A stretch of 64,000 nucleotides of DNA, from assembly GCF_016903815.1 (NCBI RefSeq), contig NZ_CP069974.1; one strand, written 5' to 3'. A program made the position numbers. Of the stretch, positions 58,401-61,400 are shown piece after piece (the first letter of the stretch is position 1; each line of letters begins with the position of its first letter). This DNA comes from Escherichia coli. GTDB lineage: Bacteria; Pseudomonadota; Gammaproteobacteria; Enterobacterales; Enterobacteriaceae.

Positions 58401-61400
58401 GCACAGAAAGAAGTCTTGAACTTTTCCGGTCATATAACTATACTCCCCGCATAGAGCAACAGCTTCTATGCAGTTTCTTGTTAGCCCCGGTAATCTTCTC
58501 TTAGTCGCCAAACCTGGTGAAGATTATCGGGGTTTTTGCTTTTCTGGCTCCTGTAGATCCACATCAGAACCAGTTCCCTGCCACCTTACGGCGTGGCCAG
58601 CTGCGTATTTTCATGAAAGGAGATCACTCAATAACTTCCATCGAGATCGGGTAATAACATTTGAACAGATCGCTGAATAACATCGATGGAGATCACTTTT
58701 GACTCATTTTGTTATTCAGTGATCTCCATCAATGTTATTGGAACTTCACAGGTGTGTTGATCTGTATCTTTTGCCATTCCGGTAAAGGATACCTATGCCA
58801 ACAGTTCCAATTTCTATGAGAAAACTTAAAGAAATTCTTAGGCTTAAATACGGTGTTGGACTCAGCCATCGACAAATTGGTCGTAGTCTTGCAATCTCCC
58901 CTTCCGTTGTATCCAGATATGCTAATCGGGCGGCTCAACTTGGCATAAAGCAGTGGCCCTTACCTACAGGATGGGATGATACAAAACTAAAACATGCGTT
59001 CCTTCAGACCCAGGTTAAGATGAAGAAGCACTCTCTGCCTGACTGGGCTACAGTACACCGGGAACTGCGTAATAAATGCGTGACGCTGCAGCTACTCTGG
59101 GAAGAATACTGTGAGCGTAATCCAGGCGGTTTTTACAGCTATAACCATTACTGCCGGATGTACCGTGAATGGCTCAAAACCACTTCACCATCAATGCGTC
59201 AGGTACATAAAGCTGGCGAAAAACTTTTCGTTGATTACTGTGGACCTACCGTTGGCGTTACCGACCCTGAGACCGGAGAAATAAGAACTGCTCAGGTCAT
59301 CGTAGCTGTTCTCGGGGCATCAAGTTACACATGGGCAGAGGCCACCTGGTCTCAGCAGCTTGAAGACTGGGTGATGAGTCATGTTCGCTGCTTCCAGTGG
59401 TTGGGTGGCGTTCCTGAACTTGTTGTTCCGGACAATCTGAAAAGCGCCACATCCAGGGCATGTAAGTATGATCCTGACGTTAACCCTACCTACCAGCAGA
59501 TGCTTGAGCATTATAATGTCGCAGTTTTGCCTGCGCGGCCACGTAAACCGAAAGATAAAGCCAAAGCTGAAGTTGGCGTTCAGGTTGTTGAACGCTGGAT
59601 CATGGCCCGAATCAGGCATGAGATCTTCTACAGCCTTGCATCGCTTAATCAGCGCATTCGGGAGTTGCTGGAAAGACTGAATAACAAAATAATGCAGAAG
59701 TTGGGTTATTCACGTGCAGAACTCTTCATCCAGCTTGATAAACCCGCACTGAAGCCTCTTCCTGAAGCCAGTTACAGTTACACCCTGGTGAAGAAAGTCA
59801 GAGTTCATGCCGATTACCACGTGGAAATCGACAAACATTACTACTCGGTTCCATGTTCGCTGTTAGGCCAGCAACTGGAAGCATGGATCTCCGGAGAACT
59901 GGTAAGACTCTTCAATCAGGGGCAGGAGGTTGCTGTGCACCCGCGCAAGCGTACTTATGGCTACAGTACCCGCAACGAGCACATGCCTGAAGCTCATCGA
60001 CAGCATGCCACCTGGACGCCAGAGCGTCTTCTGGAATGGGCGGGGCACATAGGCAGTGAAACTCATAGTTATGTGCTTCATATACTGAACTCTCGTCCAC
60101 ATCCGGAACAAAGCTATCGCTTCTGCCTTGGACTCCTGAACCTTCATAAAAAATACAGTAAAGCCAGACTTAATGCAGCATGTGCAAGAGCTCTGGAAAC
60201 AAAGGTATGGCGTCTGTCAGGTATTAAATCGATCCTGGAAAAAGGTCTGGATAAACAACCTGTTCAGGATCCAAAACCAGATCTGTTATCCACGATGGAA
60301 CACGAAAACGTACGCGGCAGTGAGTATTACCACTGATACGGGATCCAATGATGAATCATCTTTACGAACAACTGACCGCACTTAAACTCACCGGCTTCCG
60401 TGATGCGCTTAAAAAGCAACTTGCTCAACCGGGCACATACCAGGAGCTGGGCTTCGAAGAACGCCTGTCATTACTGACAGCAGAAGAACTAACCTGCCGT
60501 GAAAACAGGAAGGCAGAGCGTCTGATCAAACATGCACGGTTCAGACTTAATGCTGAGTTATCAAAGCTGGATTATCGTAACAATAGAGGGCTGGACAGGG
60601 CCCTCATCCGTTCACTCAGTCAGGGAAACTGGTTAACCCTGAAACAAAATATTTTACTGACCGGGGCCACCGGCAGCGGTAAAACGTTCCTGGCATGTGC
60701 ACTTGGTCATAATGCCTGCCGACAGGGATACAAGGTCTACTATTATCGCCTTAAAGCGCTGATGGAACAGTGCTATCAGGGGCATGCTGATGGAAGATAC
60801 AGCAAACTTTTGACCAGGCTGAATAATAGCGATCTGCTGCTTCTGGATGACTGGGGGCTGGAACCTCTCTCATCAGAACAGCGTAGCGACCTGCTGGAAA
60901 TAGTGGATCTGATGTACCAACGAGGCTCAATCATCGTAGTGAGCCAGTTGCCGGTGGAAAACTGGTACAAAATGATCGGAGACTCCACACATGCGGATGC
61001 CATCCTAGATCGACTGGTTCATGGCAGTATCAAGATCGAACTTAAAGGAGAATCAATGCGGAAAATACAATCTCCGTTGACCGAAGGAGATCAGTGAAGG
61101 TAATTTAAAAACGGTTCTGTGAAAGTGACACGAACCGATCTCCATCGATGTTACTCACCGATCTCCTTCACGGTAATACGCAGCCAGCCACAAAATTCCT
61201 TAAACGATCAGTAATCTAGCACTAATCTTCTGAACACTCAGAATGTAAGCCCATCATCACATGCATCGTTTTTGCGCTTCACTTTTTATCAGTGCGGTCA
61301 GAACTTCAGCCTGGGTCAGGCCATCTTCATTACACATTTGCATGAGCATGGCCTTATACTTTGGTTCGAGAAATACTTTTACTTCCTTGAACGAAGCTCT

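Follow-up and report, generated by a model that had tools for sequence, protein, structure and literature searches.

An insertion sequence located between the repressor gene repA2 (copB) and the copA/repA1 segment of an IncFII replicon raises the question whether the replicon is deregulated by the insertion or separated from its own promoters. This question is addressed here for a stretch of 64,000 nucleotides from Escherichia coli (contig NZ_CP069974.1), which as a whole is called the window and to which all coordinates refer unless stated otherwise. The window contains the following parts of an IncFII replicon.

61257..61511, minus strand: repA2/copB, transcriptional repressor gene, intact, 84 aa (NF010256, 142.9 bits against a cut-off of 87)
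58451..58541, plus strand: copA antisense RNA (complement CopT), intact (Rfam RF00042, 91.1 bits against a gathering score of 60, full model)
58416-58444, plus strand: copA promoter (PcopA), TTGAAC-17-TATACT (promoter scan)
58359..58433, minus strand: tap (repA6), intact leader peptide gene (coordinates transferred from the annotated identical locus L001)
57509..58366, minus strand: repA1, IncFII initiator gene, intact, 285 aa (TIGR03474, 579 bits against a cut-off of 446.9)
57324..57332, minus strand: DnaA box TTATCCACA of the oriR region (region colinear with R100)

All coding and RNA parts of the replicon, i.e. repA2, copA, tap, repA1, and oriR, are intact in the window. As is characteristic of IncFII (RepFIIA) replicons, RepA1 is encoded together with CopA opposite the repA leader, an upstream RepA2/CopB gene, a tap gene overlapping the repA1 start, and a downstream oriR. 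All components of the IncFII control system known from R100/NR1 and R1 are found in the window with 96% identity to R100, and the RepA2 protein is of the R100 type. In contrast to R100, CopA is different, the -35 region of the repA promoter PrepA is one T shorter, and the transcription unit is split by 2581 bp. A continuous PcopB/PrepA-leader-tap-repA1 unit is accordingly lacking, the insertion sequence (IS) apparently lying between the inferred promoters and the leader.

The ISEc12 element and its target site

The interrupting element belongs to the IS21 family and is flanked by short direct repeats.

58602..61182, plus strand: ISEc12 (IS21 family), 2581 bp, TG...CA ends (sequence, profile matches, RefSeq names of identical copies)
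58795..60336, plus strand: istA, IS21-family transposase gene, 513 aa (NF033546, 310.5 bits against a cut-off of 160)
60348..61097, plus strand: istB, helper AAA+ ATPase gene (RefSeq start 60351; NF038214, 270 bits against a cut-off of 200)
58596..58601, no strand: target-site duplication, left copy, GCCAGC (R100 blocks overlap by 6 nt)
61183..61188, no strand: target-site duplication, right copy, GCCAGC (R100 blocks overlap by 6 nt)

The ends of the element read 5'-TGCGTA...TACGCA-3' (fuller ends TGCGTATT.../...AATACGCA) and form imperfect terminal inverted repeats (inverted pairs I1, I2, and I8, besides the direct families D1 and D4). Motifs similar to GATCTCCATCGATGTTA are repeated in both ends, at about 58617-58740 and 61116-61177. 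The NF033546 match identifies an IstA transposase (HTH plus DDE), and the helper ATPase IstB is encoded directly after it, its start being located 12-15 bp past the istA stop. With istA and istB, TG...CA ends with repeated motifs, and a duplication of 5-6 bp, the element resembles the prototype of the family, IS21 of R68.45. Its identification as ISEc12 is supported only indirectly, by the RefSeq label of identical copies ('IS21-like element ISEc12 family') and by an ISfinder-based call for the same plasmid backbone in the retrieved passages of PMC10786849. The element itself is no different from other members of ISEc12 or the IS21 family, and its interest lies only in its location within the repA leader.

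A BLAST alignment of the R100 replicon with the window yields two colinear blocks of 96% identity, in which R100 18-484 corresponds to window 61648-61183 and R100 479-3201 to window 58601-55878. The R100 coordinates of the two blocks overlap by exactly the 6 duplicated bases. Removal of the IS and one repeat restores the R100 sequence GGAATTTTGTGGCTGGCCACGCC with full colinearity, and this sequence is found uninterrupted in R100, pHUSEC2011-2, and at least 60 other E. coli plasmids. Because of the 6-base overlap and the existence of empty sites, the GCCAGC repeats represent a true target-site duplication and not a chance repeat; the 6 bp, proven by the empty site, are within the 4-8 bp of the IS21 family. 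Duplications of 5 bp have been made by other ISEc12 copies, and such a duplication has been reported for the copy interrupting tssM in ST131 clade C (PMC10711316).

The duplicated bases are located 68 bp from the repA2 stop codon (61257) and 54 bp from the CopA 3' end. In an earlier note on this DNA, a 2581-bp istA-istB element with 6-bp GCCAGC repeats had been proposed to lie between repA2 (copB) and copA/repA1, about 75 bp from the former and about 65 bp from the CopA terminator. The NF033546 and NF038214 matches within 58602-61182 confirm the element, the R100 alignment confirms both the duplication and the location, and the two distances were close estimates. At the left junction (58591-58606, plus strand), the insertion creates a small hairpin with a T-run (GCGTGGCCAGCTGCGT ATTTTCA) just downstream of the CopA terminator, which is probably due to chance.

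The repA promoters and the probable effect on repA1

Only two promoters have been reported for repA, namely PcopB, which precedes copB and is constitutive, and PrepA, which follows copB and is repressed by CopB (PMC5717011). For the localization of PrepA, five repA2 alleles were aligned (window, R100, pJJ1886_5, pIP1206, and a Shigella dysenteriae plasmid), with the addition of pHUSEC2011-2, which has the same RepA2 protein as the window, and promoters were ranked by a simple sigma-70 weight-matrix (PWM) scan. Divergence is strong in the repA2 genes and over the 20-40 bp that follow them, but conservation among the five alleles resumes abruptly at TG(C/T)TAGATT(A/G)CTGATCG and runs on into CopT. 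Every allele has a TTG-like hexamer (TTGAGT, TTTACT, TTGCTG, or TTGAAC) 16-17 bp upstream of TAGATT. The site composed of this -35 hexamer, the 16-17 bp spacer, and TGnTAGATT has the top PWM score of the repA2-to-tap interval in all alleles (8.8-12.6), the next-best independent site scoring 6.3 or less. In the R100-type allele, the -35 hexamer is located inside the dyad TTCTTGAGTGTTCAGAA. Because operator and -35 differ from one repressor allele to the next, whereas extended -10 and leader are constant, as expected of a repressor-specific operator, this site just after the repA2 stop is most probably the RepA2-repressed PrepA. In the window, it would have the following layout.

61205..61243, minus strand: inferred PrepA (Pc) (comparative alignment and PWM scan)
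61241-61236, minus strand: putative -35 hexamer CTGAGT, within the dyad TTCTGA-GTGT-TCAGAA (61243-61228), a putative RepA2 operator
61221-61213, minus strand: putative extended -10, TGcTAGATT (alignment and PWM)
about 61208-61205, minus strand: predicted transcription start (from the motif position)

A CopB-repressed repA promoter in the repA2-copA interval, as stated in the earlier note, is thus supported by the five-allele comparison and the PWM scan, with 61241-61213 as its probable site. The Kid toxin has been reported to cleave UUACU-type sequences in the copB-repA intergenic mRNA (PMC4344636). One UUACU sequence overlaps the end of the inferred -10 and would then occur only in PcopB transcripts, which fits the published Kid model.

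The -35 region of the window (61236-61243, minus strand) has one T deleted in comparison with R100 and pHUSEC2011-2, which converts TTGAGT into CTGAGT and makes the surrounding dyad a perfect TTCTGA-N4-TCAGAA palindrome. This deletion is found in all IS-bearing loci and also in at least 60 plasmids in which the insertion site of the window, called site A, is empty. It is an allele trait, and an origin as a consequence of the insertion was therefore rejected.

Counted from the inferred PrepA start, the IS begins after about 24-27 nt; its other end is 54-60 nt upstream of CopT, and istA-istB are antisense to repA. Because the inferred PrepA lies upstream of the IS, on the repA2 side, tap-repA1 would be separated from both promoters; the repA1 start is now 2.6 kb away from the two inferred promoters. 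In the proposed sequence of events, an F1-type IncFII replicon would have received an ISEc12 copy in the region encoding the 5' leader of its repA mRNA. The transposition would have generated the 6-bp duplication and cut off tap-repA1 from PcopB and PrepA by 2.6 kb of untranslated antisense IS sequence. While CopA would still be made, RepA1 synthesis would fall to little or nothing, leaving the IncFII replicon silenced or crippled and the plasmid to be replicated by RepFIB, which is present in the window, and RepFIA, which is seen in related plasmids. With RepA2 and CopA still expressed, the plasmid would presumably continue to exert IncFII incompatibility on incoming plasmids, its own dependence on that control being gone. 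We assign a probability of about 60% to the main reading, i.e. that the insertion disconnects repA1 from PcopB and PrepA and silences or cripples the IncFII replicon, while other replicons maintain the plasmid.

According to a different explanation, which the earlier note had put forward, the IS would uncouple repA1 from RepA2/CopB repression, and an outward promoter of the IS or read-through would keep the replicon active with an altered copy number under the control of CopA alone. Such uncoupling agrees with the intact repA1, tap, CopT, and oriR in the window and in most carriers, and with the fact that repA2 is not among the elements required for maintenance of pEC958 (PMC4398462). Weak promoter-like sites with 8/12 consensus matches are also present on the minus strand near the left end of the IS, e.g. 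TCAACA-17-TAACAT at 58760-58732, and this site and another at 58946-58919 reach PWM scores of 6.2-6.4. However, these candidates are no better than eight others on this strand and far below PrepA and PcopA (8.8-12.6). The best minus-strand sites of the IS, eight in number, score 6.1-7.0 and are scattered over the element in the manner of background, the score of PcopA being 12.4. Neither the PWM nor a separate promoter scan revealed a minus-strand promoter pointing out of the IS toward repA1 above this background. No candidate between the insertion point and tap scores above 5.4, and the search for a hybrid promoter created at the junction gave a best PWM score of 2.2. Furthermore, a scan of the minus strand of the IS found six weak terminator-like hairpins, and 2.6 kb of untranslated antisense RNA with such hairpins should be prone to Rho termination; some read-through across the IS may occur. 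Some carriers also persist despite a broken repA1.

A precedent for copy-raising insertions is provided by pKpQIL-like IncFII(K) plasmids, in which IS5 and IS26 insertions in repA2, selected by meropenem-vaborbactam, raise the copy number (PMC5700310). As in the window, an IS disrupts the copy-control module of these plasmids. There, however, the repressor is destroyed while PrepA is still joined to repA1, resulting in a copy-up, unstable plasmid, whereas in the window the repressor is intact and the initiator gene would be cut off from both inferred promoters, so that the opposite effect is expected. On sequence grounds, the insertion would more probably cost the replicon its repA1 expression than alter its copy-number control, and uncoupling appears unlikely. 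What stands of the earlier proposal is that the IS does intervene between CopB control and repA1; it would cut off PcopB and PrepA alike and not CopB control alone, and the suggested IS-derived promoter found no support, as nothing above background points out of the IS end.

Distribution of the insertion and of other ISEc12 copies in the control region

As a structure the insertion is already known, and it is ordinary in kind. An ISEc12 interruption with target duplication in the FII-1:FIA-1:FIB-49 backbone has been stated in PMC10786849, the retrieved passages of which contain no comment on an effect on the replicon. The additions made here are the position relative to the promoters and the likely silencing. 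Among 5426 complete E. coli genomes, 103 contain the site-A junction according to an 80-bp junction probe, and every match is on a plasmid. A 400-bp junction probe, which also catches nearby sites, detected 133 genomes, and the 4.3-kb repA1-IS-repA2 segment is covered to 80% or more in 128 PLSDB records. Carriers of the site-A insertion include pAMA1167-NDM-5 and plasmids of the ST410 strains 19-7 and 020026, which are references for the F1:A1:B49 lineage of the ST410 clones B4/B5-H24RxC (PMC6052333; retrieved passages of PMC10786849).

According to a further rival explanation, the insertion would be a neutral passenger that struck a redundant replicon and became common only by clonal expansion of the plasmid and of ST410, neither silencing nor derepression being selected. 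This is in line with the location of all 103 junction matches on plasmids, the ST410 references among them, and with the abundance of ISEc12 in E. coli, where a genome search found its left end at thousands of chromosomal places. Decay of one replicon in a multi-replicon plasmid is, moreover, an established model (PMC4398462). Against neutrality, a stretch of about 400 bp in this control region has been hit by ISEc12 at four further positions in other plasmids, suggesting a hot spot or selection. A purely neutral history is regarded as improbable.

Two repA1/tap backgrounds carry the site-A junction, namely that of the window and one with a RepA1 identical to that of R100 (comparison with L007, L008, L015, and L017). 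Their sequences agree from the junction up to 58399 and differ from 58398 on (compared stretch 58382-58398), which indicates a putative recombination breakpoint within tap/PcopA.

Apart from site A, ISEc12 is located at the following positions of the control region.

61405-61409 (window equivalent): inside repA2, duplication CGGGC, 5 genomes (L005, NZ_CP054237)
about 61469 (window equivalent): inside repA2, further upstream, 23 genomes, ST131 O25b:H4 plasmids (L004, NZ_CP015086)
about 61583 (window equivalent): 72 bp upstream of the repA2 ATG (L006, NZ_CP195489)
3545-6125 of NZ_OW968125 (L018): reversed relative to the window element, within the PrepA spacer of another FII allele, duplication TCTCA

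The first three insertions have the orientation of the window element and, like it, reside in an F1-type replicon; the two inside repA2 are the direct counterparts of the pKpQIL-type disruptions. In L018, which stands for two near-identical Spanish plasmids (2 genomes), the IS lies between the -35 TTGCTT and the -10 TAGATT. This insertion would separate the operator and the -35 from the -10, with istAB co-directional with repA1. The escape from CopB that the earlier note had considered for the window does not suit the insertion there; it fits L018 instead, where the element is inside the promoter spacer in the opposite orientation. A strict orientation bias of ISEc12 was rejected, since four sites share the orientation of the window and one (L018) is opposite, and 4:1 is not significant with so few events. 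In several F1-type plasmids with an empty site A (H219, H232, H239, H241, H247, H256), repA2 is annotated only as a partial 'RepB family protein', which suggests further independent repA2 disruptions by other events.

Five ISEc12 insertions within some 400 bp point to a hot spot or to selection. As a tentative idea, which at present must be called doubtful, the IncFII copy-control region of about 400 bp might be a recurrent, selected target of ISEc12 in multi-replicon F plasmids. The ST410 F1:A1:B49 plasmids and the ST131 O25b:H4 plasmids would then have repeatedly re-tuned or switched off FII, while retaining CopA and RepA2 for use as a weapon of incompatibility against competing FII plasmids. 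The basis for this idea is at least five independent insertions in at least 133 of the 5426 genomes. Among them are insertions that remove the repressor and one that splits the promoter; the commonest, at the site of the window, would behead repA1.

Co-resident replicons and the state of the IncFII replicon in carriers

Besides the IncFII replicon, the window encodes a second replicon.

5734..6711, plus strand: RepFIB initiator gene, 325 aa (Rep3_N, E=1.2e-10)

The annotation of pYS1024-1 assigns a replication initiator function to an ORF of equal length, and the window protein contains motifs that we take to be those of the F/P307 RepFIB RepA. The co-resident RepFIB replicon on which the earlier note had counted is thereby borne out. 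IncFIA, IncFIB, and IncFII are present in all five carriers checked for replicons, and no IncFII-only carrier was found among these five. The RepFIB gene, repE, and sopAB are all present in the smallest carrier among those listed (62.9 kb).

The inspection covered nine copies of the insertion, those of the window and of eight retrieved carriers, the choice of which was biased toward small plasmids. In two of the nine, repA1 is broken. In pGMI17-003_3 (L008) it is frameshifted and truncated at about 120 aa, and in p38_A-OXA140 (L016) it is cut by IS26 with loss of oriR, in an assembly with many frameshift flags and maybe of low accuracy. In L007 and L015, repA2 and most of the IS are gone and only the left end of the IS is kept. 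Decay is not general, however, as repA1, tap, CopT, and oriR are intact in most inspected copies. Because FIA and FIB are present in the checked carriers and repA1 is broken or repA2 lost in some copies, the IncFII replicon is dispensable in this plasmid lineage. According to the relaxed-replicon model, one replicon of a multi-replicon plasmid is free to decay (PMC4398462). RepFIB and RepFIA would presumably make silencing of the IncFII replicon tolerable, as the earlier note had suggested for RepFIB.

RepFIC of the F plasmid is said to be interrupted by Tn1000, as reportedly described by Saadi et al. in 1987. Together with the relaxed-replicon model, this case resembles the window in that an IncFII-like replicon is inactivated by a mobile element while other replicons maintain the plasmid. 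In F, the initiator gene itself is truncated, whereas in the window all coding and RNA parts are intact and only the link from promoter to gene would be broken.

Further features of the window are located outside the replicon. Between repA2 and finO (63156-63767), an Rfam match to the antisense RNA AS-pc02 (62731-62916, plus strand, 179 bits) and a Hok/Gef-type toxin ORF (61808-61999, minus strand) were found; the stretch 62000-62700 looks degraded, and a DUF2726 pseudogene is annotated there in related records. The resistance region contains a match to a class 1 integron attI/aminoglycoside leader (52352-52433, minus strand) and many ORFs of 240 aa, which correspond in size to the IS26 transposase gene. 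It also contains tet(B) and a chromate transporter gene, and hsdM (type I restriction-modification) is found near RepFIB; the coordinates of these three genes are 12234-13487 (plus strand), 47895-49100 (minus strand), and 1690-3252 (minus strand).

Plasmid typing reports three F replicons (FII-1, FIA-1, FIB-49) in these plasmids. The standard FII typing forward primer, in what we take to be its sequence, ends 3 nt before the insertion point, and the real FII typing amplicon would in that case exceed its expected length by 2.6 kb. With a beheaded FII replicon, an NDM-5 plasmid lineage of global importance would rely on FIA/FIB for its replication, copy number, and incompatibility. If true, this would have consequences for incompatibility-based curing, for copy-number-linked resistance levels, and for the reading of 'F1' calls.
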